Source: Promethearchaeota archaeon (GTDB taxonomy: Archaea; Asgardarchaeota; Lokiarchaeia; Sigyniarchaeales; SOKP01). Taken from it: a stretch of DNA of 56,285 nucleotides. Shown here in pieces: positions 1 through 18,899 of this stretch. The first letter of the stretch is position 1; every line of letters starts with the position of its first letter. The translations under genes were made by a program, and so were the position numbers. The notes beneath the pieces are model-generated. The model was not told where the DNA came from and searched no databases. It saw only the letters and a list, made by a program, of their open reading frames with translations. The DNA lies in the NCBI GenBank assembly GCA_048939015.1, contig JBHLPW010000031.1, positions 1 through 56,285 on the forward strand, given 5' to 3'.

Positions 1-1150
1 TAATTAATTCTATAGTTTTTTGGGCGTCTTGTATAGACTCACCTGGCAATCCTACCATAATACTTACAAATACCTTTCTTATACCAATTTTTCGAGCATA
101 TGTCGTCATTGTTTTCAATTTATTAATAAACAAATTTTCTTTTTCTAAATTTTGCGAATTGGTCTCTGGGGATGTCACTTTTCCTATTGTCTTTAATACT
201 CTCGGAACAGCACTTTCTAATGAAAATCCAATTGAAGTAAAACCCGCTTGTTTCATCAAATCCAATAATTCTTCCGAGACGGTATCACAACGAGTAGTGC
301 AAATTAATGGTATCTGTAGATCATTTTCTATTATTGCTTCACAGATTTTTTCTGCTCGAGTTGGTACTATTGTAAAAGTATCATCGTTAATTGGAACAGG
401 ATGTATGAAATTACTATATTCACTGATATATCTTAATTCTTCAAGAACTCTCTCTATTGAATGAAAGTAAATATTTCTTTTATTAATTACAGCACAATTA
501 CAATAAATACAATTCTGATTGCATCCCCTAGCCGTAATTATTCCTGTGGGAAATGCTTTAGATATAGGAATAACATTTGAAAGATACGGAGATGGATATT
601 TGTCAATAAAATTTTTAATAAACCTATTCGAAAGAAGAACACTTCGATCTGGATTAAGTATAATTTGATCTTTAATCTTAAAGGTAACACCATTAATATC
701 AAATAATTCTGTTTGAATCAGATTGTAATTATTATCTGAGAGATTTAATAGTAATTCAAGAATAGTTTCTTCTCCTTCCCCTCTAATGCAAATATCAACA
801 CTGTTAATACTGTCTAAAATTTCTCTAGAATGCACACTAGGAGTGGGACCTCCGAAAATAATAATTATATCTGAATTATACTTCCTTAAACAATTACTTA
901 ATAACACACATTGTATATAGTTAGTTTCATAAACTGAGAATCCAACAATTTTTGGCGAATAGCTCAGAATTCTCTTTACGCATTCATCAACACTATAAGA
1001 CTCATTTGAAATAAATTGTTCAGCATTGAAATCATGTTTCCTTAAGTAAGCAATTATGTAAGCTGATCCTAAATGATATATAAAATTGGTAAAATACAAG
1101 TCCCCACCAGAAGGAAATACCATTAATATGTCTAATAAGTTCCTATCCAT
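1..1150 (-). CDS. B12-binding (class B) radical SAM protein, 3' end runs off the window
   Basis: Not in ORF track because there is no stop in the window. Manual translation from ATG 1150 gives MDRNLLDILMVFPSGG...HLGSAYIIAYLRKH...IVGFSVY...IIFGGPTPS...CIRGEGEET (cobalamin-binding domain), then TARGCNQNCIYC (CxxxCxxC), DDTF and IMVGLPGES. Confidence 0.9.
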   Translation of the reverse strand, partial: MDRNLLDILMVFPSGGDLYFTNFIYHLGSAYIIAYLRKHDFNAEQFISNESYSVDECVKRILSYSPKIVGFSVYETNYIQCVLLSNCLRKYNSDIIIIFGGPTPSVHSREILDSINSVDICIRGEGEETILELLLNLSDNNYNLIQTELFDINGVTFKIKDQIILNPDRSVLLSNRFIKNFIDKYPSPYLSNVIPISKAFPTGIITARGCNQNCIYCNCAVINKRNIYFHSIERVLEELRYISEYSNFIHPVPINDDTFTIVPTRAEKICEAIIENDLQIPLICTTRCDTVSEELLDLMKQAGFTSIGFSLESAVPRVLKTIGKVTSPETNSQNLEKENLFINKLKTMTTYARKIGIRKVFVSIMVGLPGESIQDAQKTIELI

Positions 1151-1808: not shown

Positions 1809-2039
1809 CTATTTTAAATCTCTTAATCCAAATTTAAATTTCTCAGGATGTAAATGGTAATACCCCCCTGATAGTTTCCATCGTTTTAAATCTCTTTTTT
1901 TTGATATTTGGTCTTTTTCTTTTTTAACAGATGGAGTCTTATCATGAATAATTATATTTTTTTCAATCGGAATGCTGGAACTTACTTCTTTTTCTAATTC
2001 CTTGAAATCAGATACGAAAATTTCCTCAATTTCGGTCAG
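1809..2039 (-). CDS. 76-aa small protein with CTG start, ending in the shared LHPEKFKFGLRDL motif
   Basis: SD GGAGGTGA directly upstream of CTG ACC GAA ATT. Open for 76 codons (MTEIEEIFVSDFKELEKEV...WKLSGGYYHLHPEKFKFGLRDLK). C-terminus aligns with the peptides at 7600 and 8050. Confidence 0.7.
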   Translation of the reverse strand: MTEIEEIFVSDFKELEKEVSSSIPIEKNIIIHDKTPSVKKEKDQISKKRDLKRWKLSGGYYHLHPEKFKFGLRDLK

Positions 2040-2225
2040 ATTTCCTCACCTCCTCTATTCATTTTTACAATCTTTGGACTTCAAATATGTTATAGTTAAG
2101 TTTTTATTATTAGTTTTTGACGCTGAATTCTGACTGGACTATTGGATATGGATTGGACAATTCTAAAATAGCTGTATTATTCACTTAAATTCATACTTTA
2201 GTCTGGTAAAAAAAAAAGAAAAAAT

Positions 2226-4034
2226 TTAATTTTCTTCAACTAGTTTTTCCAATTCATCAATCTTATCTGAGAGATATTTGATTCCTTTTTCCCAGAATGT
2301 AGGATCATTTAGATCGATACCAATTTCTGCCAACATTTCTTCAGGAGAAAGTGAACTTCCAAGAGAAAGTAATTTTAGATATTTAGGAACAAATTCATCC
2401 CTTTGTTCAAGATACATTTGATAGATAGAAATGACTAAAAGATTTGACATGTTATAGGCGTACACATAGAATGGAACATTTAAAAAGTGTGGAATTACAA
2501 AAATATAGTTGGCATATTCTTCCCGGATATTGATCATAGAATTCCTAAACATTAGTTCCATTTCTTTTACGAAAGCATCTTTAATTTCTCCCGTTGTAGG
2601 TAATTTCTTTTCTAATAATCCATGAATGGCTTTTTCAAATCTATAAAAAGCATTTTGTCTATGTGAAGTTGCAAACTTTGCTTCAATAGTACTACATAAT
2701 AATGCAATTTTTTCGTCCTTAGACAAATCTGTGTTCATTAAATAATCAGTGATCAACATTTCATTGAATACAGAGGCTATTTCCGCGACCACGAGAGAAG
2801 TTTCAATGTTTACAAAATTTTGATCTCTTTGGATATAATAGGCATGGAAGGCATGACCAAGTTCATGAGCTAAAGCACGTACCGAATCAACGGTCTCTAC
2901 AAAATTAACGAAAACAAATGCATAATGTTTTTGTTTACCATGTGCACAAAAAGCACCTCTATTTTTTCCCTTTCGCGGTGTCGCATCGATGTGTCCTATA
3001 TCAACTATTTTGTCTATAATATCTTTAAATTCAGGGCTAAATTTTTCATCAGAATCCTTAATTAACTCTATAGCTTCTTGGTAGGTATATTTTCTCGTTA
3101 TTTGGCCAATTGGTGCGTACAGGTCTGACATGTGTAATTCGGGAAGATTCAAGAGTTTTGTCTTTATATTATAATATTTTTCAACAATAGGATAACTATT
3201 TGTGGTAACTTCTCCACATACTTCTACACTCTCATCACTTACTTCATTTTCCAAGTTTCTTCTTGTGATAGGTTGTTTAAAGTTTCTTTTCGCACATTCT
3301 AAATCCCAATCTCTTAAAATATTGTTATAAATATGAGTGAATATCATCTCATTTTTTTTATACTCTGCCACAATTTTTCTTAGAGCTCTACGCCTACGAT
3401 CCACATCATCCTGATACATGTAAGAAAATAGTTCTGCTTCGGTTAGTTTCTTCATTCCACCATCTACTTCAAAATCAAAAGTAAAACTACTCTTTAATTC
3501 ACCATAAAGTTTGATAAAGCCTTTTACACCAGTCATATCCTTCATTAAGATAATTTGTTCCTCATTTTCAGAGAGTTGATGTTCTTTTTTCATCCTATTG
3601 AATTTGAGAGCATGCTTGTAATTATTTAGTTCTGGAGCTTTTACTAACTCTGCAAATTTATCGTCAGAAATTCGATTAAGCTCTAAATCAAAAAATAAGA
3701 GCTTTTGTTGGATTTTAACTTTAAACTCATCAATTTTTGAATAAAAACCTTTTATGTCATCATCCAGAAAATTAGTTCTTAATAGTAATTCTGCGTATGT
3801 ATCAAAATAAAAGGTCTTCTCTGATATATTTTCATATTCCTTGTACCATTCTAAAAGTTGTTCTGGTGTAAGTGAAGGGTCTTCTAATTTACCTTTGACA
3901 TTTTGATTAAAGTCTTTCGCTAATCTTTCTATCTCTTGGATATCTGTCTCAATCATAGGATCATTGATCCCTGTATAATAATCACTTAGATCCCATTTGA
4001 TTATTTCTTGTGTCATAAAAGAGAAAGTAAACAC
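2226..4034 (-). CDS. pepF: Oligoendopeptidase F (M3B family); likely start ATG 4016
   Basis: N-terminal WDLS, KGKNRGAFC, zinc motif AHELGHAFH, AEIAS, and PHF..PFYVYAY. Confidence 0.9.
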   Translation of the reverse strand: MFTFSFMTQEIIKWDLSDYYTGINDPMIETDIQEIERLAKDFNQNVKGKLEDPSLTPEQLLEWYKEYENISEKTFYFDTYAELLLRTNFLDDDIKGFYSKIDEFKVKIQQKLLFFDLELNRISDDKFAELVKAPELNNYKHALKFNRMKKEHQLSENEEQIILMKDMTGVKGFIKLYGELKSSFTFDFEVDGGMKKLTEAELFSYMYQDDVDRRRRALRKIVAEYKKNEMIFTHIYNNILRDWDLECAKRNFKQPITRRNLENEVSDESVEVCGEVTTNSYPIVEKYYNIKTKLLNLPELHMSDLYAPIGQITRKYTYQEAIELIKDSDEKFSPEFKDIIDKIVDIGHIDATPRKGKNRGAFCAHGKQKHYAFVFVNFVETVDSVRALAHELGHAFHAYYIQRDQNFVNIETSLVVAEIASVFNEMLITDYLMNTDLSKDEKIALLCSTIEAKFATSHRQNAFYRFEKAIHGLLEKKLPTTGEIKDAFVKEMELMFRNSMINIREEYANYIFVIPHFLNVPFYVYAYNMSNLLVISIYQMYLEQRDEFVPKYLKLLSLGSSLSPEEMLAEIGIDLNDPTFWEKGIKYLSDKIDELEKLVEEN

Positions 4035-4150
4035 GTATTATTTGAATTTTACTAGATTTGATTTGACATTAAATTTGAAATTAATAGTCTTCAATCATTT
4101 TTTACGACTAATTTAAAATACAAATGGATTACTTATTTCTATTATAATAA

Positions 4151-4627
4151 ATGAAAGATACTAAAATACCATTTAATCCCACCCCAATTAATCCGATTAA
4201 TGAGTATAGCGAAGTTAAGCAAAGTGATATTCATGGTTTAGGATTATTTGCTAAAAAAAAAATTCCAAAAGGCACAAAATTTTGGTATGCACGTCCTCAA
4301 GATGTGTTAATTATCTCAAGAGATCAGTTTTTAATCCTTGATTCGGCTAATACTTCAACTTCTATGAAAGATTTTATGCATTATTTGCTTACTTATTCAT
4401 TTTATGAAAGAGATCAGGATGCATTAATCTTTTGCTTGGATAATGCAAAGTTCGTAAATCATTCCTTTAATCCTAATTCAGGAGCCTCTGAAGATGGAAA
4501 TGGATTTAGTTCCGTCGCATTAAAAGATATTTTACCTGGAGAAGAAATTACAGAGGATTATTCTAAATACACCCTCTGTTCCTGGTTGAAAAAGTATAAA
4601 ACGTATTTTGATCCTTGCTGTTGGTAA
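4151..4627 (+). CDS. SET-domain protein (lysine methyltransferase-like)
   Basis: SDIHGLGLFA, FVNHSFNPN and GEEITEDY SET signature motifs. Confidence 0.88.
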   Translation: MKDTKIPFNPTPINPINEYSEVKQSDIHGLGLFAKKKIPKGTKFWYARPQDVLIISRDQFLILDSANTSTSMKDFMHYLLTYSFYERDQDALIFCLDNAKFVNHSFNPNSGASEDGNGFSSVALKDILPGEEITEDYSKYTLCSWLKKYKTYFDPCCW

Positions 4628-4637
4628 TTCTTGAAAA

Positions 4638-5192
4638 TTATGACTTTGTAGATAATGCTTTAAATTTAGAATATAATTCAGTAATAATGGCATTGAATGC
4701 CTCGTGGACTCCTTGGCCTGTTTTTGCGGATGTTAAATAATAGTCTAAAAAATTTCGTTCCTCTATAATACCTTGAATCTTAGTCCTATTCAAATTTTGT
4801 TCATTAACTAAATCAACTTTATTGGCAAAAACAACAATAGGAATATCTCCACAATGTTTTTTAATATCTTCATGCCAGTCATTTATATGATCGAAGCTTC
4901 GTTTACCTAAATCATTTTCTTCTAAACTAAATACAATAATTGCTGCTCGACTCTCTCTATAAAAAGATGGACGCAAAAAGAGAAAATCATCCTGCCCTGC
5001 GATATCCCAAAATAATAATCGGACCTGATCGCCATTAATTTCTACATCATATTCAGACCACTGCGCACCAATAGTCTTAATATATTCCTTTTGAAACGAG
5101 CCTTGTGTAAATTTTTTGATAAGCGATGTTTTTCCAACTGATCCATTGCCTACAATCGTTATTTTAAATCCAAACTTCTGAGAATCGTTCAT
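4638..5192 (-). CDS. Rab/Ras-like small GTPase
   Basis: G1 GNGSVGKT, G2 TIG, G3 WDIAGQ, G4 NKVD, G5 SAK. No C-terminal prenylation cysteine. Confidence 0.93.
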   Translation of the reverse strand: MNDSQKFGFKITIVGNGSVGKTSLIKKFTQGSFQKEYIKTIGAQWSEYDVEINGDQVRLLFWDIAGQDDFLFLRPSFYRESRAAIIVFSLEENDLGKRSFDHINDWHEDIKKHCGDIPIVVFANKVDLVNEQNLNRTKIQGIIEERNFLDYYLTSAKTGQGVHEAFNAIITELYSKFKALSTKS

Positions 5193-5282
5193 TTTAGGCA
5201 GATTTCAAATTATTAAATTAAGATTAGATTTAGTTTAATTTAAAATTTTAGTCTAAACTAAAAAAGAAAGAAAAAAAAATAC

Positions 5283-5363
5283 TTAATGTTGATTTAACCA
5301 TTGGCAATAACCATTGTTAAAAACTTTTAATTGTGCTTCTTCATTTGCTTCAAGTTTTTTCAT
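5283..5363 (-). CDS. 26-aa peptide MKKLEANEEAQLKVFNNGYCQWLNQH
   Basis: SD GGAGGT about 8 nt before ATG, own conserved promoter/operator (5418-5453), and a T-rich tract after the stop. Confidence 0.7.
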   Translation of the reverse strand: MKKLEANEEAQLKVFNNGYCQWLNQH

Positions 5364-5417
5364 AGTTTTTTACCTCCTTTTTTTTAATTTTCTTAAGTTT
5401 AATATAGAAATGCTTCA

Positions 5418-5453
5418 TTATATAGTTTTTATTGCAAAACTTTTATCGAAGTT
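5418..5453 (-). promoter_or_regulatory. BRE/TATA (TAAAAACTATATAA) with upstream AACTT-N6-AAGTT palindrome, copy 1
   Basis: + strand ttatatagttttta-N6-AACTTttatcgAAGTT. Same layout at 7859 and 8171. Confidence 0.75.
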
Positions 5454-5501
5454 TGAATATAATGGAAAGTTTATAAATAAGACTAAAAGCAGATAAAAAT
5501 A

Positions 5502-7457
5502 CTATGTAATAAGAGGAGTACTTCTATTGACGAAAATTTCATTTATCAATGGTTCGAGCGAAGGAATGTCCTTTAGTTGTACTAATTGACAAGCCTGATT
5601 AAATTTATTAAATTTTTCCCACATTTCTGCATTCTCTTTAATCTTATCGATGAATTTTGTTACTCGTTGCTGTGCGAGATACGATTGTCCCTTAAATAAA
5701 TAGCATACGAGGAAAGGATCGAGAGAATTCATAATAATGGTATAATCTCCGAAGTTAGCCCTATCAAGGCCTTTAGAGAACATCTCATCACTAAAGGAAT
5801 TAATAGCAGTTAAGAAACCACCAAATAGATGATCCTCAAAAGCCCATTCTTCAGCAAACGATTCAGAGAACAATGGTCTTCCACCCTCAGAAATAATTAA
5901 AAGCACAATAGGATCCTCATCAGTGAGTTCGGGAACTACTATTTCTCTTTTTCGGATAATTTCTTCCATCTGTTCATCAAGTTGTGCTAATTTTATACGT
6001 TCAGACAAAGGTGCTTTTGACTTTTTCAGTTTTTCCCATATGTCTAACTTTTTAAGTAATTCATCATGTTCGTATGAAATTTTCATTGCTAATCGTTTAA
6101 TACCATGCGAATCCGCTATTTTTTGAGCTTGGGTTAAATATCGCCGGGCTGTTCCAATATTCAGATCTATTAAAGCTATTTTCGCTTGTAATATGAATGT
6201 TTCACAGAAAATCAAATAAGAATGTGAATTCTCAGCAATAGTTAATAATTGAGCAATGTTTTGATTAAGTTCCTTAAATACTTCTGGATTTTGATTTATA
6301 CGATACTCTGAAAGAAGTAAGTCGCAAAGGTCGATATAGGCATCAATAGCAACAATTAATCTAGTTGGTGTCTTGTCAAGGAGTTGTTTTAATAGTTCTT
6401 CAGCTTTAGCTTTATCTCGGATCCGAGAGCTCCTTTTCAACATATTAGCTTTAAAGTATTGGTACATTATTTCGAGATCTGTATCTTTACTTCTCTTAAT
6501 ATATAAATCTTCTAAACGTTGAAAATATTTTTGAGTACGCTCAGTATCTCCCTTTTCGAGAGCTATAAATAATAAGCCAGTAATACAGAATTCTATTCGT
6601 AAAGGGTTCTGCTCCCAAATTAGTAAAGCTTCTTCTAAATATTTCAATGCAATATCATAATTGCCAAAATAACCATATGTAGATCCTATATTGCTTTTTA
6701 GAGTAGCCACCCAAAGTTTGTTTTTAATTTTTTCAAAAAGATGTAAGCTCTTCTTAAAATGTTCTAAACTAAGAGTATATTCACCTAATTGTGCATATAA
6801 ATTTCCCAAATTGTTATGACACATAGCAATCCAGTAGTGTTTAAATTTAATCTCCTTTGCAAGTGATAATGCTTTTTTAACATATTCCAAACCAAGATCA
6901 AATCTACTTTTTACATTAATCATAATACTTGTCATTTGAAGATGAGCCATAACTTTAAAAAGTGTGACATTAGTTTCTTTTTGTAACCCTATAGTCCATT
7001 CATAGTGTTTCTCTGCTAATTCCATATCACCTTTACTATAATCTATCATTCCTCTAAAAACACTCATTAAAGCTTTTCTTTGCAGAAAATTTTTTTGAGA
7101 GATTTGAGAGGTAAGTTTTAATAAGTCTTCGGCTTTTTGGATTACTTCAAGTGCTTCATCAAATCGATCAAATAAAAGTAGCACTGCAGAAACTAAAGAC
7201 AATCCATCAAATGATTGGAGAGGTGCATTTTTTTTTTGACTCTCTTTATAGATTCTCCTTCCTAATTTAAATGCATCTTTAATTTTTCCTTGATATATTA
7301 GAATATAGCCTTTAATTAACTGGTATGAAACTTTTTGCTGGAGGGTAATTCCTTCACGCTGAATAAAATCGTCTAATAATTCAATAGCTTCATCTACCTT
7401 AAATACATCATAGAGTTTTTCAACTTCTGATAATTCATTCAGTTCAAGATAAGACAT
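5502..7457 (-). CDS. TPR-repeat protein with C-terminal longin-like domain, paralog 1
   Basis: TPR units such as NNLGNLYAQLGEYTLSLEHFKKSL. C-terminal LLIISEGGRPLF...LFGGFLTAINSF pattern resembles longin domains (by eye). Confidence 0.8.
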   Translation of the reverse strand: MSYLELNELSEVEKLYDVFKVDEAIELLDDFIQREGITLQQKVSYQLIKGYILIYQGKIKDAFKLGRRIYKESQKKNAPLQSFDGLSLVSAVLLLFDRFDEALEVIQKAEDLLKLTSQISQKNFLQRKALMSVFRGMIDYSKGDMELAEKHYEWTIGLQKETNVTLFKVMAHLQMTSIMINVKSRFDLGLEYVKKALSLAKEIKFKHYWIAMCHNNLGNLYAQLGEYTLSLEHFKKSLHLFEKIKNKLWVATLKSNIGSTYGYFGNYDIALKYLEEALLIWEQNPLRIEFCITGLLFIALEKGDTERTQKYFQRLEDLYIKRSKDTDLEIMYQYFKANMLKRSSRIRDKAKAEELLKQLLDKTPTRLIVAIDAYIDLCDLLLSEYRINQNPEVFKELNQNIAQLLTIAENSHSYLIFCETFILQAKIALIDLNIGTARRYLTQAQKIADSHGIKRLAMKISYEHDELLKKLDIWEKLKKSKAPLSERIKLAQLDEQMEEIIRKREIVVPELTDEDPIVLLIISEGGRPLFSESFAEEWAFEDHLFGGFLTAINSFSDEMFSKGLDRANFGDYTIIMNSLDPFLVCYLFKGQSYLAQQRVTKFIDKIKENAEMWEKFNKFNQACQLVQLKDIPSLEPLINEIFVNRSTPLIT

Positions 7458-7599
7458 GTTTACATTTAATGTGGATTATAACCTTATGAATTCATTAAGC
7501 TAAGTTTAATTTTAAATCTAATTAAACTAATATAACTAAGAAGATAAGAATTTTACAAGAAAAAAATTAAAAAAAAAGAATAAGAAAAAGAATAATTAA

Positions 7600-7686
7600 T
7601 TATAGGTCTTTCATTCCAAATTTGTATTTCTTTGGATTTAAGACAAAATCTCCAAGAGTAGCTTCCATACCTTTTTTATTTGACAT
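7600..7686 (-). CDS. 28-aa peptide MSNKKGMEATLGDFVLNPKKYKFGMKDL
   Basis: SD GGAGGG. Near-identical paralog at 8050 differs by an in-frame 12-nt indel. T-tract after the stop. Confidence 0.8.
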   Translation of the reverse strand: MSNKKGMEATLGDFVLNPKKYKFGMKDL

Positions 7687-7734
7687 ATTTTTACCCTCCA
7701 TAAGGTTTTATATAATATGATAAAAGTTATTTGA

Positions 7735-7812
7735 TTAATCATGAATGTAATTTTGTGAAACTATTACATCATTTCTTATTTTTATAATTCGAGTCTGATT
7801 TATTTTTTTCAT
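7735..7812 (-). CDS. 25-aa peptide MKKINQTRIIKIRNDVIVSQNYIHD
   Basis: GAGGG SD-like site. First ORF after promoter copy 2, upstream of the 28-aa peptide. Confidence 0.5.
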   Translation of the reverse strand: MKKINQTRIIKIRNDVIVSQNYIHD

Positions 7813-7858
7813 TTTTTTTCCCTCTATGTTTTCTTAATTATAATATAGAAATAATTTA

Positions 7859-7895
7859 TTATATAGTTTTTAATATAGAACTTTGTACGAAGTTC
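7859..7895 (-). promoter_or_regulatory. BRE/TATA with GAACTT-N6-AAGTTC palindrome, copy 2
   Basis: + strand ttatatagttttta-N6-AACTTtgtacgAAGTT. Confidence 0.75.
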
Positions 7896-8049
7896 GAATA
7901 TTTAAGAAAGTTATGAAATGTATATTCTTAATGCGAAAAAGAGAGGAAAGTGGGTTCTATTTTAAATATAAATATTTGATAAAAATCATAAAATATTAGA
8001 TAATATAATAAAGAATTTAAAAAGATTAAAAAGAAGAATAAAAAATTAA

Positions 8050-8124
8050 TTATAGGTCTTTCATTCCAAATTGGTATTTCTTTGGATTTAAGACAAAATC
8101 TCCAAGAGTAGCTTTATTTGACAT
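8050..8124 (-). CDS. 24-aa peptide MSNKATLGDFVLNPKKYQFGMKDL
   Basis: SD GAGGT, paralog of 7600-7686, divergent from the wHTH-TPR gene. Confidence 0.8.
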   Translation of the reverse strand: MSNKATLGDFVLNPKKYQFGMKDL

Positions 8125-8170
8125 TTTATTTACCTCTTTATTTTGTTAATTATAATATAGTATACTTTTA

Positions 8171-8206
8171 TTATATAGTTTTTATTAAGAAACTTTATGC
8201 GAAGTT
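8171..8206 (-). promoter_or_regulatory. BRE/TATA with AACTT-N6-AAGTT palindrome, copy 3
   Basis: + strand ttatatagttttta-N6-AACTTtatgcgAAGTT, in the divergent intergenic region about 80 nt before the regulator start. Confidence 0.75.
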
Positions 8207-8287
8207 CGAATATTCAAAGAATAATTTAAATAGTTAAAACTGCTATCTATCAATGACGAACGAATCTAAATAAGGATCTCAAAAGCT

Positions 8288-10189: not shown

Positions 10190-10197
10190 TAAAAATA

Positions 10198-10752
10198 TTA
10201 AATTTGAAAAGCTAATTTCTTAGATTTATAATATAATTTTTCTATAATTGCATTAAAAGCTTCTATTACTCCTTGGCCTGTTTTTGCTGAAGTTATATAA
10301 TACCCTAAAAGGTTAAATTTATTGACTAAATTTTGAATTTCTGATTCATTTAAATCATTTTCATTAATTAAGTCGACCTTATTGGCAAATAAAACAACTG
10401 GTATATTGCCACAATATTTATTTAATTCATTATTCCAATTTTCTATATGCAATAAGCTGTCTTTTCCTAATTCATTTTCTTCAAGGCTATATACAATAAT
10501 ACATGCTCTACTTTCTTTATAAAATAAAGGATGGAGAAAATTAAAATCATCTTGACCTGCAATATCCCAAAATACTAATTTAATTATATCTCCATCAATT
10601 TCTTTTTCATATTTCGAGAATTGGGCTCCTATTGTCTTTATATAGTCTTTTTCAAAAGTTCCCTTAGTAAATTTGTTAATTAGGGAAGTTTTTCCAACTC
10701 CTCCATCACCTATTATAGATATTTTAAATCCAAATTCTTGGGAACTATTCAT
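10198..10752 (-). CDS. Rab/Ras-like small GTPase, paralog of 4638-5192
   Basis: GDGGVGKT, TIG, WDIAGQ, NKVD, SAK. Confidence 0.93.
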   Translation of the reverse strand: MNSSQEFGFKISIIGDGGVGKTSLINKFTKGTFEKDYIKTIGAQFSKYEKEIDGDIIKLVFWDIAGQDDFNFLHPLFYKESRACIIVYSLEENELGKDSLLHIENWNNELNKYCGNIPVVLFANKVDLINENDLNESEIQNLVNKFNLLGYYITSAKTGQGVIEAFNAIIEKLYYKSKKLAFQI

Positions 10753-10855
10753 CGATTTCTTTTGTTTTTCAAAATAAATGTACTTTAATGTAGAATTAGA
10801 TGTTGTCTAATATAAAATTTTAGCAATAAAACATGAAATTTTAACATTTTTCACA

Positions 10856-12814
10856 TTATAAGCTAACCATACTTTTAGGGACAAAAATTTCTGATATTAA
10901 AGTTTCAAGTAAGGGAAGGTCTTCTAGTTTAACAGTTTGATTAATTTGAAAAGACTTAAGCAAGTTTTGCCATATTTTTTCTTCCTTTTTGATCTTATCC
11001 TTGAAGTAGTCTACTTTTTGAAGTGCAAAATAGGAATCACCTTTAAAAATATAAGATATAAAAAACGGTGGAATAGATTTCATATGAAGTGTATACTCAC
11101 CGAAAATTGCCCTGTCAAGACCTTCAGAAAACATCTCTCTGATAAAATAATCAATCGTTGTCAGAAATCCACCAAAAAGATGTGATTCATAGGATTTTTC
11201 ACCAATAAAAGAGTGGGAGAACAATGGTGTACCTCCTTCTGATAAAATTAAAAGAAGTATTGGTTCTTCATCTGAAAGCTCAGGTACAACTATTCGTTTT
11301 TTTATCATATTTTCCATTTGCTCGTTCAACCCCGCGAGATTCAAACGTTCAGTTAAGGAAGCATTTGATTCTTTTAACTTCTCCCACATAATTTTTTGTT
11401 TGATTAATTCATCATGTTCATATGAAATTTTCATAGCTAATCGTTTCAAATTGTAAGATTCGGCTAGCTGTTGTGCTTGAGTTAGATATCGACGAGCTTC
11501 CTTTATATCAAAATTTAATAATGCTATTTTTGCTTTTAAAATATAAGCTTCGCAAAAAAATCGATAAGAATGCGTTGTTTCTGCTATATTCAATATTTGA
11601 GCTACATTTTCATTTATTTCATCAAGTACTTCACTATTATTATTCATACGAAATTCTACAAGAAGTAGGTCACATATTTGAATATATGTATTCAGTATTA
11701 AAACAAAGTCCCTAGTTTCTGTTTCAAGAGCTTGTTTGAATAATTCCTCTGCTTTAACTTTATCTCGAATCCGAGAACTCCTTTTTAACATTAAAGCTTT
11801 ATTGTATTTGTATATGAAATCGAGTTGACTGTCCGATGTTTGATTATGTATAATTTCCAAATGTTGAAAGTATTTTTGAGCAAGCTTAATATCACCCTTT
11901 TCAAGTGCGACATAAATTAAACTATCAAGACATCCCCCTATACCTGCTCTATAGAACGAAGGTTGGATTTCCTTGATATTTAAGTTTTTTTCCAAATATT
12001 CCAAAGCAAGATCATATTCACCCATTTCCAAATAAGTATTCCCAATGTTATTATATAAGGCTGCAGTCCATTGACTACTTTTAAATCCTTTTGTAACCTT
12101 TAAAGCTTTAAAATAATGTTCTAAACTTTTATCTATTTCTCCTGTAGTTTGATATGTAATTGCAATAAAACCATAGCACATTCCAAGCCAGTAATGATTA
12201 AATTTAATTTCTTTAGCGAGTGATAATGCCTTCTGGAAATATTCCATGGCGAAATTAGTTCTTCTTTTTCCTAAGAGCATAATTTGTCCTAATATTGCAT
12301 TAGCCCAAACAATTTCAAATGAAGTTCCAAGTTCTTTTTGCAAATTAAAAGTCCATTCTAAATATCTTTCTGCTAAATCTAAGTTACCTTCATTATAATG
12401 AATAAATGCTTTTAATAAATTTAAACGAGCTTTTCTTTGAATCATAACTTTCTTAGAAAGATTAGATAGGAGTTTAAACTCGGATTCGGCTTTTTCAATT
12501 ATTCTTTTTGCTTCATCATATTTCTCATAAATACTTAATCCAACAATATTAAAATATAATCCATCAAAAGATTGAAGGTGCTCATTGAGCTTCTGCCCTT
12601 CATTAAATATATGTTCACCTAGTTTTATTACTTCTTCACTATGGTTTAGATATGTTAAAACAAATCCCTTTAGATTCTGAAAATAACTTTTTTGTTGAGG
12701 ATTCAGCCCCTGATATTGAGTCTCATCATTCAATATTTCAAGAGCCTTCTCAAGTTTACCATCATCAAAAAGCTGTTCTGCTCTTGTTAATTCATTCAAT
12801 TCCGGAAGAGACAT
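10856..12814 (-). CDS. TPR-repeat protein with C-terminal longin-like domain, paralog 2
   Basis: Full-length similarity to 5502-7457 (KRSSRIRDK, KRLAMKISYEHD, LFGGFLT). Confidence 0.8.
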   Translation of the reverse strand: MSLPELNELTRAEQLFDDGKLEKALEILNDETQYQGLNPQQKSYFQNLKGFVLTYLNHSEEVIKLGEHIFNEGQKLNEHLQSFDGLYFNIVGLSIYEKYDEAKRIIEKAESEFKLLSNLSKKVMIQRKARLNLLKAFIHYNEGNLDLAERYLEWTFNLQKELGTSFEIVWANAILGQIMLLGKRRTNFAMEYFQKALSLAKEIKFNHYWLGMCYGFIAITYQTTGEIDKSLEHYFKALKVTKGFKSSQWTAALYNNIGNTYLEMGEYDLALEYLEKNLNIKEIQPSFYRAGIGGCLDSLIYVALEKGDIKLAQKYFQHLEIIHNQTSDSQLDFIYKYNKALMLKRSSRIRDKVKAEELFKQALETETRDFVLILNTYIQICDLLLVEFRMNNNSEVLDEINENVAQILNIAETTHSYRFFCEAYILKAKIALLNFDIKEARRYLTQAQQLAESYNLKRLAMKISYEHDELIKQKIMWEKLKESNASLTERLNLAGLNEQMENMIKKRIVVPELSDEEPILLLILSEGGTPLFSHSFIGEKSYESHLFGGFLTTIDYFIREMFSEGLDRAIFGEYTLHMKSIPPFFISYIFKGDSYFALQKVDYFKDKIKKEEKIWQNLLKSFQINQTVKLEDLPLLETLISEIFVPKSMVSL

Positions 12815-12904
12815 GTGTTTATTTAGTTTGGATTAAAATGCTATGAATTTATTAAGTTAATTAGTGTTTTAAATGTGTTGTAAAATTATTCTTTATTTTA
12901 AAAA

Positions 12905-14866
12905 TTAAATTCTATTAAATTTAGTATTTTTATTAATAAAGGTTTCTGTTATTAAAGATTCAAGTAAAGGGATGTCTTTTAAGTTAATAGACTGGTTTGC
13001 TTGAAAGAATTTAAGTAAATTTTGCCAAATAAATTCTTCTTTTTGTATACTATCGATAAAATTTTGCATTTTTTGATGAGCGTGATAAGAATCCCCTTTG
13101 AATATATAGGTAATAAAAAAGGGGGGAATAGATTTCATAAGGAGGGTATATTCACCGAAGATCGCGCGATCTAGACCTTCAGAAAACATTTCTTTAATAA
13201 AGTAATCAATAGTTGTTAAAAAACCACCAAAAAGATGTGACTCAAAAGATTTTTCATCTAAGAATGAGTGGGAGAATAAAGCTAAACCTCCTTCTGTTAT
13301 GATAAATAATGAAACAGGTTCTTCTTCTGACAGCTTAGGAATTTCAATCATTCGTTTTTTTACTATTTTCTCCATTTGCTCGCTTAATCCAGAGATTTTC
13401 CAGCGTTCGGGTAAAGAAGCCTCTGAATCTTTTAATTTTTCCCATAAATTTAATTGCTTTAGTAATTTATCATGTTCATGTGAAATTTTAATTGCCAATC
13501 GTTTGATCCCATAAATTTCCGCGATTTTTTGAGCTTGAGTTAGAAAACGTCGCGCTGCTTTCATATTAAAAGTTAATAAAGATAATTTGGCTTGCAATAT
13601 GAAAGTTTCACAAAAAACAAGAAAGGAATGTGCATTTTCAGCTATAGTTAATAATTGGGTAATATAATATTTGAGTTCATTAAGAACTTCAATATCATTA
13701 TTGATACGATATTCTGAAAGAAGCAAGTCACAAAGATGAATAAGTGCGTTAATTTTAAGATCAAAATGTAAAGTTTCTTTTTTGATGATTTTTTTTAATA
13801 ATTCCTCGGCTTTAACTTTATCTCGGATTCGAGAACTCCTTTTAAGTATTAATGCTTTAGTGTAATAGTAAAGCAATTCTACTTCACTATCTGTGCTTTG
13901 ATTATATATATTTTGTAATTGATGAAAATATTTTTGAGCTAGTTCAGTATCTCCCTTTTCGAGAGCTACATTGGTTAAACTATCTAGAACTCCTTCTATT
14001 TCTTTAGATTTCTTCTCACGGATTAATAAACTTCTTTCCAAATATTCTAAAGCAAGGTCATATTCACCTTTCTCGTAATACAATATCCCAATATTGTTTA
14101 ATAAACTCGCATTCCAAAAATCACTTTTAAATCCTTTTACAATTTTTAATGATTTCATATAATATTTTAAACTATTATCTAACTCTCCAATATTGCGATC
14201 TAATATCGCACTAAAACCGTGATATACAGCAATCCAATAGTGGTTAAATCTAATTTCTTTTGCACATAATAATAATTTCTTGAGGTAGGTCCTAGCAAGA
14301 TCAAATCTTCCCTTTACTAGAGCCATAATTTGTACCATCATTAAATTAGCCCAAACTATTTCGAATGTAATTCCAATCTTATTTTGCAAACTCAAAACTC
14401 CTTCTATACTTTTTTCTGCAAAATCTATTTTACCGTAATTCACATTAATCCAAGCTTTTAGTAAAGTTAAACGAGCGCCTCTTTGAAGGAAAATTTTTTT
14501 AGAAACAATATTAGGCATATGTTTCAAAAAAAGTTCAGCTTTTTCAATTAATGATGATGTTTCTTCAAATTTTTTATCAAGAATACATAATCCAATGAGT
14601 TTTAAAAGCAATCCATCAAAAGATTGGAGAATATCATTACAATTTTGACCTTCATTAAATAATTCTTGACCCCACTCAATAAGTTTTTTACTTTTGCGCT
14701 GGTATGTTAAAACTAAGCCTTTAAGAAACTGGTAATATTGTTTTTGCTCATGTGTAAGCTCCTCAAATTGGTTCTGATCATTTAATATTTCAAGAGCCTT
14801 CTCAAGCTCACCCTCATCAAAAAATTCTTCCGCTCTTGTTAATTGGCTTATCTTAGGAAGAGACAT
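12905..14866 (-). CDS. TPR-repeat protein with C-terminal longin-like domain, paralog 3
   Basis: Tandem paralog of 10856-12814. Confidence 0.8.
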   Translation of the reverse strand: MSLPKISQLTRAEEFFDEGELEKALEILNDQNQFEELTHEQKQYYQFLKGLVLTYQRKSKKLIEWGQELFNEGQNCNDILQSFDGLLLKLIGLCILDKKFEETSSLIEKAELFLKHMPNIVSKKIFLQRGARLTLLKAWINVNYGKIDFAEKSIEGVLSLQNKIGITFEIVWANLMMVQIMALVKGRFDLARTYLKKLLLCAKEIRFNHYWIAVYHGFSAILDRNIGELDNSLKYYMKSLKIVKGFKSDFWNASLLNNIGILYYEKGEYDLALEYLERSLLIREKKSKEIEGVLDSLTNVALEKGDTELAQKYFHQLQNIYNQSTDSEVELLYYYTKALILKRSSRIRDKVKAEELLKKIIKKETLHFDLKINALIHLCDLLLSEYRINNDIEVLNELKYYITQLLTIAENAHSFLVFCETFILQAKLSLLTFNMKAARRFLTQAQKIAEIYGIKRLAIKISHEHDKLLKQLNLWEKLKDSEASLPERWKISGLSEQMEKIVKKRMIEIPKLSEEEPVSLFIITEGGLALFSHSFLDEKSFESHLFGGFLTTIDYFIKEMFSEGLDRAIFGEYTLLMKSIPPFFITYIFKGDSYHAHQKMQNFIDSIQKEEFIWQNLLKFFQANQSINLKDIPLLESLITETFINKNTKFNRI

Positions 14867-15006
14867 ATATTCGTTTGAATTGGATTATAACCTTATAAAA
14901 ATATTAGGCTAATTAACATTTTAAATATAATGTAAAGGAGAAATATTTTCAAAACTTCAATACATTTTCTTCAATTATTATTAACGTTTATATAGAAAAA
15001 AAAGAA

Positions 15007-15100
15007 GTATTGAATGGAGGACCATTGGTTTAGTACTAACTACTTCTGGAAGTATTTTTTCTAACCCAACTCCTCCAATTCTATACCCTGATTTAAAATT
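15007..15100 (-). terminator. Conserved 3' stem-loop plus U-tract, copy 1
   Basis: Minus strand GTATAGAATTGGAGGA...TCCTCCATTCAATAC followed by a T-run. Repeated at 15805. Confidence 0.5.
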
Positions 15101-15142
15101 AAAATTTCCTTTTTTCACCCTCATTATTCTTTCTTATAAGGT

Positions 15143-15646
15143 TTAAGTAATATTTAACGTGTAAGTCAGAGTAACAAAAAGTCTCCATCCATAAACTTCA
15201 TCTCCATAATAAGGCTTTTGAACCCACATTTGATGTATGATTGTGTGCTCACCAACCTCAAAATAACCCGCTTCAAAAACATGATAAACAGCCCGCCATT
15301 TAAGGCCTGGAATACCAAATAACCCATCCGTATCAATCCACGTAAACCTCTGCAAAGCTATTTTTTCTCCATCAATCCATACTATATGTTTATATGGTTG
15401 CTGTGGGAAATATCCTATTTCATCTTCACTACATGCCGTCATAACACCCCATATACTTGGCTCATCCTGTGGAGCTTCTATCACTACATTTGGTTCCAAG
15501 CTGCTAATAACATTATACTGGAAATATTCCCATATGAATGGAGGGGCACCTGCTCTAGCTGTTGTAGTAAAACCTAAGATTGTTACCAAAACAGTTAGAC
15601 CTAATAAGACTTTTGGAACTAATTTCGATTTGCTAATTTTGATCAA
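15143..15646 (-). CDS. Hypothetical secreted protein
   Basis: Basic N-terminus, hydrophobic stretch and ARA|G cleavage-like site. Remainder looks beta-rich. Confidence 0.7.
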   Translation of the reverse strand: MIKISKSKLVPKVLLGLTVLVTILGFTTTARAGAPPFIWEYFQYNVISSLEPNVVIEAPQDEPSIWGVMTACSEDEIGYFPQQPYKHIVWIDGEKIALQRFTWIDTDGLFGIPGLKWRAVYHVFEAGYFEVGEHTIIHQMWVQKPYYGDEVYGWRLFVTLTYTLNIT

Positions 15647-15719
15647 CTCTTTTATTTAAATTTTAATTTTAAGTTTATCACCAATATGATGATCGAGAAA
15701 AGTTTGAGATTTTCTGCTA

Positions 15720-15773
15720 TTTATAATTAGGCATCCGTAAATTCCATGGAACATCCTTTTTTTAATGGAACTT
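15720..15773 (-). promoter_or_regulatory. Second conserved promoter/operator type, copy A
   Basis: Aligns without gaps to 16841-16894: TTTATAATT, three TCC units, ATGGAA. Confidence 0.6.
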
Positions 15774-15804
15774 TATTAGTAGAAAAATTAAAAATAAAAA
15801 AAAT

Positions 15805-15864
15805 GTATAGAATGGAGGATTAGTTAATCCAATCTCCTCCAATTCTATTCCCTGATTTAAAATT
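15805..15864 (-). terminator. Conserved 3' stem-loop plus U-tract, copy 2
   Basis: Minus strand TAGAATTGGAGGA...TCCTCCATTCTA followed by a T-run. Confidence 0.5.
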
Positions 15865-15916
15865 TTATTCTCCCTTTTTCACTTTAATATAATCATTTTC
15901 TGACTATACCCTGATT

Positions 15917-16327
15917 TTATCCTCTCTGTTTAACATAAGCAACAACAATAAGAACGAGAAGTAGGCTCATTATAACAATATCCATAACGCCTTGCATAGT
16001 AGCTTCAGTGGAGAATACAGAGCCAAATACCGCAACCAATGAAGCTTCCACAGCTATGTTAATTGGTAACCAAATACCCAAAACTTCATATGCGAGTTTA
16101 ATTTTTTCCCACTCCCAATCCTTATGGAGAAGTACTAATACGGCAAAAATTGTTACGATGAATAATGCTGCACCAAACATTCGTGGATGAGAAGGATTTT
16201 GCCACGTTGGCTCATTAAGGGTGGCCAAGAATATATCAGTTAGGAATACAAGCATTATCCCAAAAAATAAACTGACACCACCGTATGCTAAAATTGCAAT
16301 TTTTGTTAATTTTTTAATTTCAGTCAT
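15917..16327 (-). CDS. Four-helix membrane protein, paralog 1
   Basis: Four hydrophobic segments. Paralog of 16368-16760 (MTEIKK, WEKxKLxYE, YxKQR). Confidence 0.8.
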   Translation of the reverse strand: MTEIKKLTKIAILAYGGVSLFFGIMLVFLTDIFLATLNEPTWQNPSHPRMFGAALFIVTIFAVLVLLHKDWEWEKIKLAYEVLGIWLPINIAVEASLVAVFGSVFSTEATMQGVMDIVIMSLLLVLIVVAYVKQRG

Positions 16328-16367
16328 TTATTTCACTCAAATTTTTTTCAAATTTCTTTTTTTATAA

Positions 16368-16760
16368 TTATTCTCTTTGTTTAATATACGAGTAAACCCC
16401 AAGAACAAGCAATACAGACATTACTATCATATCCATAATAGTCTGAGAAATCATCATACTAGTAGGTGTACCAAATGCTAACCGTGTAGGTTCCAGGATC
16501 ATCATAGCTATTAACAAATAGTACAAGAATTCATATATCAGCTTTACTTTTTCCCATTCTCGATCTTTTTTAATTAGAATTAAGAATGCGAAAATTGCAA
16601 TTCCCAATAAAGTTGCACCATTGTATCTTACATTGAAAGGATTGGTTGTAGCATCTATAAGAAGAGGGACAGGAAAAAATAAACCCATAGGTCCATATAG
16701 TATATTAACGATACCGTATGCTAAAAGGGAAATCTTTGTAATCTTTTTTATTTCGGTCAA
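16368..16760 (-). CDS. Four-helix membrane protein, paralog 2
   Basis: Same architecture as 15917-16327; TTG start. Confidence 0.8.
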   Translation of the reverse strand: MTEIKKITKISLLAYGIVNILYGPMGLFFPVPLLIDATTNPFNVRYNGATLLGIAIFAFLILIKKDREWEKVKLIYEFLYYLLIAMMILEPTRLAFGTPTSMMISQTIMDMIVMSVLLVLGVYSYIKQRE

Positions 16761-16840
16761 TTTTTAAATCAACTCAATATCTTTGTTTTTTCGGTTTTAT
16801 CATCTTAATGATGACCAATATAAGTTTGAGAAATTGTGTG

Positions 16841-16894
16841 TTTATAATTGAGCTTCCGATAGTTCCGTGATAGTTCCATTGCATTATGGAAGTT
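16841..16894 (-). promoter_or_regulatory. Second conserved promoter/operator type, copy B
   Basis: GATAGTTCC direct repeats and a TTCCAT-N6-ATGGAA palindrome upstream of the TATA, divergent from wHTH-TPR paralog 2. Confidence 0.6.
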
Positions 16895-16964
16895 CTATGA
16901 AATAAATATAAATAGAAAAAAAAATGATCTTTAATTTAGAAATTTAAATTTATTTTTCTAAAAA

Positions 16965-18899
16965 ATGGTAAACGTAATTTATCCTCCAGAAAAGATATAT
17001 AGCCCTTCCATATTAAAAAAGCCAAATTATAACCATATTATTCTCTGGATGTTGAAAAATAATGAAGAATGTAAATGGGGGGATTTTCGTCAAAAACCAA
17101 TAGAAATTCCCACAGGAACTTTATCGAGACATCTAGAAGTATTAAAACGCAAGGGTTTTGTTGAAAATTTTTCAAGAGGATATTATAGAATTACATCAGA
17201 GGGGAAAAAGAAATTTCATGAGTTATCGAGTGCAAAGATAAGTGCTCGCAAACTTAATTATCCTCCTAAATTAATGTTAAAAAGTGGAAGAAATTACTTA
17301 GACTGGATACTTTGGATGATTTATAATAATAATTACTGTAAAAGAACAGATTTTTTAGAAAAACCCTTATCTATAAATCAATCTTCCTTATCAAAAAATT
17401 TGAGTTTGTTAATTGAAAAGGGTTTTGCATCAAAAGAGGATGGAAAATATATAATCACTCAAGTAGGGAAATCAGAGTATTCAAGGATGCTTCAAAATTA
17501 TGATTTAGATAGACAAACTATTTTAGAAGAGGAGGGTAAACGAATTGAAGAGATTACTCAAAAAACAATTGAATTCTTCAACAAACTTGATGTAAGAGAT
17601 AAAGAGATTCAATTTAGGTTTCTCAATAGTATTCTAAAATTAGATTATGAAAAAGTAAAGCCTCTATTAAAAGATGAGGAGGTTTTTCATAAAATTTTAC
17701 TTTTTCTCTCAATTAATCATCCAGATCAATATCCAGACTTTATATCTTCTGAAGATTTTTCCAAAATCTATAAAATTAAAAAAACTACACTTGATTATTA
17801 TATAACTGAAATTTCTGAAGGTAAAATATATCCAATAAGATTTTTTAAGTTGACTCAACCATCTGGCAAGCAATATTACTTTCAATCCGATGGGAGGTTA
17901 GAAAGAATACTTCAAGTACTCACAGAGAATCAAATCACAAAAGCTTCTTATTTGGATAAGTTATTTTCAAAGTTAACTTCCGAATTACCCGCAGTAAATA
18001 TGAAATCCATTATAAATGATGTCGCAGATAAGAGTTGTGAATTCTTATTTAATATAGATATGAAGGCGTCATTAAAAGAATTCCTACCCGAATACATTAA
18101 GTATCTTGCATATAAAGTCGAGACTAAGAAAGAATTGAAAGCTACATATGATAAGTTAGAAGGAATAATATGGCAAAATATAACAGATATATTTCAATCT
18201 GAAATATATAATAACTTAGAGGATCAATTTGAAGTACAAATAAAAGAAATTGAAAAGAAAATTGAATTAACCCCAGAAAATCCTGATTTATATTATTTGA
18301 AGATAAGAATTTTGCTTTATTTTAACCAATATCAAGAAACTATAAAGCTTTTAGACAGTTTGCTTGAAATTTTTCCTGAAAATGAAAAGGATATTAAATT
18401 ATTAAAAGCAGCTGTTCTTAAAAGGATGCAAAATGTGGAAGCAGGATTAGATATTATTAATGAATTAATTCAAAAATATCCAAAAGACAATGATCTAATG
18501 TGTTATAAAGCGTATTGGATGCAATACTTAGAAAACGAAGAAGAGGCAATAAGAGTGATTCAAAACCTTATAAAAATGGAACCAGATAATGGAATGTATC
18601 ATGATACTTATGGCGAGATTTTAATGTATTCTGAGCACTATGAAGACGCTGCGAAAAAATTTCTAAAAGCAATTGTGATTGATAGTGATCAGTGGTACAT
18701 ATATCAAACTTATATTAAATTAGGAATATGTTATAAAGCACTTGAGAATTTTGATTTAGCGCTTAAAAATCTTAAAAAAGGAAAAGAGTTAATAAAAAAA
18801 AGTGCTATAGATGCAGAAACAAACAAGAAATGGAGCACAATAGCCGATCTTTTCATTACTGAGATAAATGATTTTTTCGAAAACATTGTTGAAATTTAG
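16965..18899 (+). CDS. Putative transcription regulator: tandem wHTH plus TPRs, paralog 2
   Basis: Full-length similarity to 8288-10189. Confidence 0.8.
   Translation: MVNVIYPPEKIYSPSILKKPNYNHIILWMLKNNEECKWGDFRQKPIEIPTGTLSRHLEVLKRKGFVENFSRGYYRITSEGKKKFHELSSAKISARKLNYPPKLMLKSGRNYLDWILWMIYNNNYCKRTDFLEKPLSINQSSLSKNLSLLIEKGFASKEDGKYIITQVGKSEYSRMLQNYDLDRQTILEEEGKRIEEITQKTIEFFNKLDVRDKEIQFRFLNSILKLDYEKVKPLLKDEEVFHKILLFLSINHPDQYPDFISSEDFSKIYKIKKTTLDYYITEISEGKIYPIRFFKLTQPSGKQYYFQSDGRLERILQVLTENQITKASYLDKLFSKLTSELPAVNMKSIINDVADKSCEFLFNIDMKASLKEFLPEYIKYLAYKVETKKELKATYDKLEGIIWQNITDIFQSEIYNNLEDQFEVQIKEIEKKIELTPENPDLYYLKIRILLYFNQYQETIKLLDSLLEIFPENEKDIKLLKAAVLKRMQNVEAGLDIINELIQKYPKDNDLMCYKAYWMQYLENEEEAIRVIQNLIKMEPDNGMYHDTYGEILMYSEHYEDAAKKFLKAIVIDSDQWYIYQTYIKLGICYKALENFDLALKNLKKGKELIKKSAIDAETNKKWSTIADLFITEINDFFENIVEI

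Follow-up and report, generated by a model that had tools for sequence, protein, structure and literature searches.

A candidate regulon of micro-protein genes linked to a winged-helix/TPR regulator in a TPR-longin and Rab-like GTPase gene cluster of a Lokiarchaeia archaeon

The 56,285-nt stretch of DNA analysed here (hereafter the window) corresponds to contig C120 of an assembly of 4.86 Mb with 30% G+C from a Promethearchaeota archaeon of the Lokiarchaeia. In its first third, it carries a cluster of paralogous genes for Rab-like small GTPases, for large tetratricopeptide repeat (TPR) proteins ending in a longin-fold domain (TPR-longin proteins), and for regulators that combine winged helix-turn-helix (wHTH) and TPR domains, among which lie four open reading frames (ORFs) of 24-28 codons (Table 1). 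These micro-ORFs, the ~95-nt promoter-operator element that precedes three of them (the cassette), and their link to the regulator wHTH-TPR1 are the subject of this report. The preliminary description of the region had proposed that four peptide genes, each led by a Shine-Dalgarno (SD) sequence, lie divergently from a wHTH-TPR regulator, share an operator, and are interleaved with a twice-repeated unit of a TPR-longin-like gene followed by a Rab-like GTPase gene, with the oligoendopeptidase gene pepF nearby. All four peptide genes, the divergent arrangement, pepF, and both units were recovered, the first unit running from TPR-longin 1 to GTPase 1 and the second from the tandem TPR-longin 3 and 2 genes to GTPase 2. 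The shared operator holds for the three micro-ORFs with a cassette but not for the fourth (7600-7686), which is a second cistron without a cassette of its own. A GAGG or GGAGG box stands 7-9 nt ahead of the ATG in all four micro-ORFs; the second cistron would encode 33 aa if begun at an upstream ATG (7701). A search of sequencing runs found the DNA of the locus in eleven metagenome runs, ten of them labelled sediment, with no RNA run among them.

Table 1 Features of the TPR-longin/GTPase/wHTH-TPR cluster (positions are those of the window)
Feature	Coordinates	Strand	Remarks
B12-type radical SAM gene	2-1150	-	ORF listing and Pfam
Long-form family-1 ORF	1809-2036	-	diverged, ~76 codons, same C-terminal motif; no ATG/GTG/TTG start
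Oligoendopeptidase F (pepF), family M3B	2226-4034	-	Pfam
SET-domain gene, 158 aa	4151-4627	+	between pepF and GTPase 1
Rab-like small GTPase 1, 184 aa	4638-5192	-	Pfam, PDB matches
Micro-ORF, 26 aa, family 2	5283-5363	-	T9 tract after stop
Cassette copy 3	5364-5469	-	palindrome 5437-5454, one mismatch
TPR-longin protein 1, 651 aa	5502-7457	-	MalT-like TPR solenoid, linker, C-terminal longin-fold domain (~residues 515-650)
Micro-ORF, 28 aa, family 1	7600-7686	-	second cistron, own GGAGGG SD, then long T-rich tract
Micro-ORF, 25 aa, family 3 (IIK[VI]RND core)	7735-7812	-	first cistron of bicistronic unit
Cassette copy 2	7813-7910	-	palindrome 7878-7895
Micro-ORF, 24 aa, family 1 (C-terminal NPKKYxFGxKDL)	8050-8124	-	oligo-T tracts after stop
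Cassette copy 1	8125-8222	-	palindrome GAACTT-N6-AAGTTT 8190-8207, BRE/TATA, initiator region, SD; back-to-back with wHTH-TPR1
wHTH-TPR1, 633 aa	8288-10189	+	two N-terminal winged helices, unassigned middle region of ~200 aa, C-terminal TPR domain
Rab-like small GTPase 2	10198-10752	-	convergent with wHTH-TPR1, 8-nt gap
TPR-longin protein 2	10856-12814	-	Pfam
TPR-longin protein 3 (tandem paralog)	12905-14866	-	Pfam
wHTH-TPR2	16965-18899	+	paralog (58% identity), without this cassette

In the window, the cassette places its palindrome ahead of a B recognition element and TATA box (BRE/TATA; AAAAACTATATAAT in copy 1). A profile built from the three window copies (nhmmer), which themselves have E values of 1e-18 to 5e-20, recovered only five copies in the genome, the next best match having an E value of 0.96; the two copies beyond the window stand ahead of a third member of micro-ORF family 1 on contig C4 and ahead of another small ORF and a TPR-longin paralog on contig C21. 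Related species of the genus have several cassettes each, and 36 copies from 17 species could be aligned. Conserved in at least 90% of this alignment are TTCGAACTTC-N6-AAGTT, which corresponds to the inverted repeat GAACTT-N6-AAGTTC; AACTATATA, the BRE/TATA element ~10 nt beyond the palindrome; and AATTAA, ~25 nt after BRE/TATA. A position just upstream of BRE/TATA is the usual binding place of archaeal activators. An ORF of 21-30 codons then follows in 29 of the 36 cassettes, with an SD-like box at a fixed distance in 26 of these, and a run of at least five T lies within 50 nt of the stop codon in 25 (compared with 22% of random 50-nt windows); each of the four small ORFs without a T run is followed by a second SD-led small ORF. 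Thus, with an operator, a promoter, a conserved initiator region, a strong SD sequence, one or two micro-ORFs, and an oligo-T tract, each cassette makes up a complete miniature gene. At one locus of a related genome (L017, ~10260-10360; G005, contig C71), an assembly gap has the same 55-nt cassette start on both flanks; this genome probably carries two tandem cassettes, as in the window, which were collapsed by the assembler.

The same architecture could be that of cis-acting leader or arrest peptides, that is, upstream ORFs governing read-through of the oligo-T terminator into a GTPase, TPR-longin, or pepF gene. A length of 21-30 codons fits the ribosomal exit tunnel, conservation peaks over the final 12 codons, and a same-strand gene often follows within 100-300 nt; in length, C-terminal conservation, and the terminator-like tract, the micro-ORFs resemble TnaC, SecM, and the fungal AAP. 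Unlike these, however, they occur as stand-alone copies with no same-strand gene within 0.8-2.4 kb, they have a dedicated operator-bearing promoter, and a homologous free-standing protein of 76 aa ends in the same motif; between the terminator and the ATG of GTPase 1, moreover, there is a separate TATA-like element. To our knowledge, attenuation by leader peptides through terminator read-through is not established in archaea. We consider this explanation distinctly improbable.

The micro-ORFs of the window belong to three families, of which family 1 is the main one. Six-frame profile searches detected it in most genomes of the genus (48 of 53), in nearly half of those of a sister genus (19 of 42), and in one of six from a third genus, but in none of 27 genomes outside the taxonomic family. 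About 40 of the matches lie in open frames shorter than 60 codons and the remainder in frames of 75-110 codons. Among 13 distinct members, the numbers of variable columns at the three codon positions are 11, 9, and 17, and synonymous and non-synonymous codon differences stand at 323:521 in frame, compared with 103:694 and 89:731 in the other two frames. The strongest conservation within the family falls on the C-terminal NPKKYxFGxKDL. Families 2 and 3 give a weaker signal, with synonymous/non-synonymous ratios of 0.28 and 0.44 in frame and 0.09-0.26 out of frame. Orthologs of family 2 were found in three related genomes (G001, G006, and G008), each upstream of the orthologous GTPase gene, from which a TPR-longin gene separates it in G006; those of family 3 were found in G005, G017, and G024, and in the first two, as well as in one G024 cassette, family 3 again forms the first cistron ahead of a family-1 peptide. 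The recurrence of cassettes and peptide families in many related genomes, together with the codon-position signature of the main family, is more than would be expected by chance. Judged by these signatures, the peptide genes that had been proposed from this one stretch are real and conserved, and the NPKKYxFGxKDL family evolves as a protein, under coding selection. None of the peptides contains a hydrophobic stretch and their N-termini are Lys-rich and polar, in agreement with the earlier remark that they have no hydrophobic signal sequence. A toxin-antitoxin reading was dropped, there being no hydrophobic peptide and no antisense partner.

The conserved N-terminal half of family 1, xATLxD[FY][VLI], bears a likeness to the PCNA-interacting protein (PIP) box, Qxx[LIM]xx[FYW][FYWLIV]. 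Positions 4, 7, and 8 are matched in all 13 sequences, basic residues flank the motif on both sides, as in p21, and the relaxed motif is expected only 0.003 times per 28 residues; Fen1 of the same organism ends in QVSLDDFIK and other C-terminal candidates have QxxLxxF[FILV]. The PCNA inhibitors p21 and, in Thermococcales, TIP are models for a clamp-binding brake, and family 1 could likewise consist of stand-alone PCNA-binding micro-proteins that form an inducible brake under the wHTH-TPR regulon. However, position 1 is occupied by E, K, or D in place of the canonical Gln, and, unlike in the tails of Fen1 and RFC or in p21 and TIP, the motif is internal and followed by a better conserved 12-residue tail, so that the best conserved part of the peptide is not the PIP-like half. 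No replication gene was found in the neighbourhoods examined, and the comparison was made post hoc. PCNA binding appears a rather unlikely role for family 1.

The link between the peptides and the regulator is seen in the arrangement of their genes. The Pfam matches of wHTH-TPR1 are to the winged-helix families HTH_45 and HTH_34 and to generic TPR. In 12 genomes, a cassette lies divergently from the wHTH-TPR1 ortholog (64-80% identity), at a distance of 40-230 nt. Family-1 ORFs are located less than 400 nt from a wHTH-TPR gene in at least 12 genomes and at 0.5-1.7 kb in at least 16 further places, both counts being lower bounds drawn from 150 of ~500 regulator matches, whereas chance proximity is expected for ~1% of the ORFs, given three to nine regulator genes per 4-Mb genome. 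The peptides therefore co-occur with the wHTH-TPR family well beyond chance (at least 28 places for family-1 ORFs). The regulator family itself comprises more than 1,200 database proteins at E < 1e-10 and is nearly confined to its own taxonomic family, in which it is present in 105 of 134 genomes; beyond that, it was detected in one genome of a neighbouring family and in none of 25 genomes from four other families. Given that a divergent cassette combined with dispersed copies is the usual signature of an autoregulated regulator and its regulon, the palindrome is probably the binding site of wHTH-TPR1, which would thereby control both its divergent promoter and the dispersed cassettes.

Collectively, these observations are best accommodated by a regulon restricted to this lineage, made up of self-contained micro-protein genes that are linked to a transcription factor with double wHTH and TPR domains and lie within a cluster of TPR-longin and Rab-like GTPase paralogs; to this interpretation we assign a probability of roughly one in three. 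One cassette is fixed back-to-back with the wHTH-TPR1 orthogroup and the others are scattered, often upstream of an orthologous GTPase, TPR-longin, or pepF gene. The peptides are likely to be produced and to work in trans within the cell, in the manner of short linear-motif ligands and not of exported quorum signals. More tentatively, their target might be, as we would favour, a TPR domain, either that of the regulator, in a feedback loop, or those of the TPR-longin proteins, with PepF clearing the peptides. A still more speculative version, which we regard as unlikely, has them as intracellular switches: short-lived, PepF-cleared micro-proteins induced by the TPR factor would dock on TPR domains or, through the PIP-like core, on PCNA, and would couple transcription to the Rab-like GTPase/longin modules or to replication. 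Prediction of a complex between full-length wHTH-TPR1 (32-row alignment) and the 33-aa peptide (13 rows) returned 0.00 in both runs and thus gave no verdict either way.

Several findings weigh against the regulon interpretation. First, the identity of the peptide next to the regulator changes from species to species although the regulators are 64-80% identical: it belongs to family 1 in the window and in G018, to families 3 and 1 in G005 and G017, to family 2 in G001, G006, and G008, and to family 4, known from the relatives only, in G016, and is unrelated in G003, G010, and G021. Among the matches listed, the regulators closest to wHTH-TPR1 (G003, G010, and G016; 78-79% identity) all adjoin unrelated small ORFs. 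Such turnover is unlike what tight receptor-ligand pairs would predict. Second, several family-1 genes, although preceded by the same cassette, stand alone, distant from any TPR or GTPase gene (the copy on contig C4 and those in G006, G008, G018, G002, and G024). Third, TPR-longin and GTPase genes also occur in this order with a wHTH-TPR gene alongside, usually convergent, on contigs C32, C21, and C59, and genome-wide profile searches found neither a cassette nor a family-1 peptide at these triads; in the two of the three that were scanned, no SD-led small ORF lies beside the triad genes. The peptides are thus not integral to the GTPase module, which works without them, but an add-on to one type of locus. 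Further, the oligo-T tract after each small ORF would also be expected of an attenuator. Lastly, family 4 has no codon-level signal. The latter result, along with the frequent wholesale replacement of the small ORF at orthologous positions, would suit an explanation in which the cassette transcripts function as small RNAs and the ORFs are incidental, but the clear coding signature of family 1, the retention of the SD box and of the 21-30-codon length in 26-29 of 29 cassettes despite sequence turnover, and the lack of any Rfam family match above threshold in positions 1-22000 make this very improbable.

The turnover of the peptides bears also on what they might do. If they were outputs only, the TPR domain of the regulator would sense something else and the peptides would be effectors docking on another partner, such as the Rab-like GTPase, the longin domain, or PepF. 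That the peptide next to the regulator comes from different families in different species is easier to reconcile with interchangeable outputs than with a cognate ligand, and longin domains, such as those of VAMP7 and AP sigma, both among the structural matches of TPR-longin 1, are known peptide-binding modules. Among same-strand genes that follow a cassette, the one for the orthologous Rab-like GTPase is the most common (12 of 36 cassettes), TPR-longin and pepF coming next. Yet the peptides ahead of GTPases with 65-80% identity differ greatly, and the stand-alone family-1 genes have no GTPase gene nearby. We consider a purely output role unlikely, if less so than PCNA binding or attenuation.

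The preliminary description had interpreted the locus as an Asgard analogue of the bacterial RRNPP systems, and this part of the proposal survives only in its outline. As in Rgg/SHP, PlcR/PapR, NprR/NprX, PrgX, and AimR/AimP, the gene for a cytoplasmic DNA-binding protein that ends in a TPR domain adjoins, often in divergent orientation, a tiny peptide gene, with the operator in the shared intergenic region and an oligopeptidase gene nearby; pepF is syntenic with the wHTH-TPR1 orthogroup in at least eight genomes, among 13 regulator loci examined. PepF has been reported to degrade Phr peptides in Bacillus. The layout, the co-occurrence, and the syntenic pepF gene thus stand; homology and an export signal do not. 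In searches of Pfam and of PDB sequences, wHTH-TPR1 showed no homology to RRNPP receptors. RRNPP regulators have an XRE-type HTH domain, whereas wHTH-TPR1 has two winged helices followed by the ~200-aa middle region, and the peptide beside the regulator is, in this lineage, replaced by unrelated families among species. No export signal was found in any of the peptide sequences, which counts against an RRNPP mode of action; nor do the peptides have an obvious processing site or the locus an Opp-type importer, and the host is an archaeon. Its sequences place the system outside the RRNPP family; at most, it functions similarly, without export. Literature searches returned nothing relevant on RRNPP systems in archaea or on micro-peptides of Lokiarchaeia, and no publication describing this system was found.

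Apart from the peptides, the cluster displays a recurrent association of TPR-longin, GTPase, and wHTH-TPR genes. The C-terminal domain of TPR-longin 1, modelled with AlphaFold2 from a 39-row alignment (predicted local distance difference test score, pLDDT, 80.6), has a beta-beta-alpha-beta-beta-beta-alpha-alpha topology, and its closest structural matches are TRAPPC4 (Z 12.8), AP-3 sigma/mu (Z 11.7-11.9), VAMP7 (Z 11.4), sedlin (Z 11.1), and CPLANE (Z 10.9), followed by Mon1-Ccz1 (Z 8-9) and roadblock chains (Z 7-8.8). The best 50 Foldseek matches are likewise mostly longin-fold chains, with roadblock/LAMTOR-type proteins (Ragulator, MglB, dynein light chain) among them, and the sole Pfam match of the domain, Fuz_longin_1, is below the cut-off (E 0.2). 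The topology and the best structural matches justify the name TPR-longin and confirm the longin-like domain suspected earlier. The last 150 residues define a family of 860 representatives at 50% clustering, nearly all of which terminate proteins of 600-700 aa. The Rab-like nature of the GTPases was equally borne out: their G motifs are intact, those of GTPase 1 being G1 (GxxxxGKT), G3 (DIAGQ), G4 (NKVD), and G5 (SAK), the Pfam Ras match has an E value of 1.8e-41, and the best PDB matches are Rab23, Rab21, Rab43, and Rab2, while Ran and Rho rank only slightly lower. Both GTPase C-termini lack a Cys prenylation motif, for which reason we speak of Rab-like proteins and not of Rabs. PepF has significant matches to Peptidase_M3 (1.5e-40) and Peptidase_M3_N (8.9e-13) and retains the HExxH site as HELGH.

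The genome encodes ~10 full-length TPR-longin paralogs, six wHTH-TPR paralogs, and ~13 close GTPase paralogs among a total of 57 small GTPases, and the order TPR-longin followed by GTPase occurs at five loci. The TPR-longin proteins are likely to be partners of their neighbouring Rab-like GTPases, of the guanine nucleotide exchange factor or GTPase-activating protein type, independently of the peptides. Repeated encoding of a longin-fold domain directly upstream of a Rab-like GTPase recalls the longin/roadblock GTPase regulators (TRAPP, Mon1-Ccz1, CPLANE, and BLOC-3; MglB-MglA; the Asgard roadblock/longin proteins, PMC10933270), from which the present proteins differ in that a TPR solenoid of ~500 aa has the longin domain as its tail and that a wHTH-TPR gene, often joined by one for a small protein with four transmembrane segments (4-TM), accompanies the pair. 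In the cultured strain MK-D1, GTPase genes generally do not share an operon with those for longin or roadblock proteins (Tran et al. 2024, PMC10933270), in contrast to their adjacency at the five loci here. Two small 4-TM proteins are encoded in the window (15917-16327 and 16368-16760, minus strand), between TPR-longin 3 and wHTH-TPR2 and together with a secreted 167-aa protein; at two of the other triad loci of the genome, on contigs C32 (84327-84764) and C21 (125609-126004), a 4-TM protein gene likewise lies upstream of the TPR-longin genes, the small 4-TM proteins being 130-145 aa long and 27-35% identical. The small membrane protein may thus be a fourth regular member of the module.

Asgard archaea encode dozens of small GTPases and longin/roadblock proteins, the genes for which are rarely linked (PMC10933270), so that partners and regulators cannot be guessed from gene order. 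Loci of the type described here offer three handles on this problem: the repeated pairing of TPR-longin and Rab-like GTPase genes, a candidate transcription factor with a palindromic operator, and conserved micro-proteins missed by gene callers. Should the peptides prove to be ligands of TPR domains or PCNA, Asgard archaea would have a regulatory layer based on peptides, the first to be described from them; should they act as switches, peptide signalling without export would exist in the archaeal lineage closest to eukaryotes.

Homology links the short peptides of family 1 to the C-terminal 25 residues of the conserved hypothetical protein of 76 aa, for which databases contain 45 relatives. 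Its AlphaFold2 model is helical but weak (pLDDT 68.7, predicted template modelling score 0.35), and a protein-atlas search with the 76-aa long form gave no usable match. The neighbours of the long-form gene in two genomes share no common theme apart from a small zinc-finger protein (C1_2/zf-Tnp_2-like), the gene of which directly adjoins that of the 76-aa protein (L025 9146-10198 and L049 6246-7061, both minus strand). The diverged long-form ORF of the window, the stop codon of which ends at 1809, and its ortholog in G017 (L016 6276-6506, minus strand) both lack an ATG, GTG, or TTG start and begin with CTG-ACC-GAA (Leu-Thr-Glu). The shared CTG is preceded in the window by a GGAGGTG box, and the ORF either starts at this CTG or is a copy in decay. 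The long-form ORF of G017 lies 0.9 kb from, and divergent to, a second wHTH-TPR paralog that is missing from the window. Between the two are small acidic ORFs of 102 and 75 aa (L016 6554-6862 and 7035-7262, minus strand) with an xNPRYFE motif reminiscent of the family-1 core NP[KE]K[FY]; to judge from this motif, they may be more distant members of the family.

Beside the long-form ORF, two small ORFs lead into the radical SAM gene: one of 74 aa, which contains two CxxxC pairs (1264-1488), and one of 51 aa, which is acidic (1633-1788). All three are on the minus strand. The G017 locus likewise has the radical SAM gene, at 66% identity, together with an ORF related to the acidic one, and the radical SAM gene with its two small ORFs is a possible peptide-modification unit. 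The micro-ORFs themselves could be conceived of as precursors of ribosomally synthesized and post-translationally modified peptides, processed by this B12-dependent enzyme: the gene and the long-form ORF keep their synteny in G017, and the peptides combine a charged N-terminal half with a conserved C-terminal one. However, most cassettes lie far from any radical SAM gene, neither a transporter nor a leader protease is encoded nearby, and family 1 has no core rich in Cys, Ser, or Thr, which renders this origin highly improbable.

Among the remaining features of the region, the SET-domain gene keeps its position in G005, with 76% identity of the encoded proteins. An Rfam scan of positions 1-22000 (E up to 0.1) gave a single match, to a C/D-box snoRNA-like family (12686-12773, minus strand; 32 bits against a gathering score of 60), which lies inside the coding region of TPR-longin 2 and is probably due to chance. 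Finally, a 54-nt direct repeat with 85% identity between its copies (15065-15118 and 15829-15882) precedes TPR-longin 3 by ~200 nt and the gene for the secreted 167-aa protein by ~180 nt; it keeps no reading frame and is probably a second shared regulatory or 5'-untranslated-region element.

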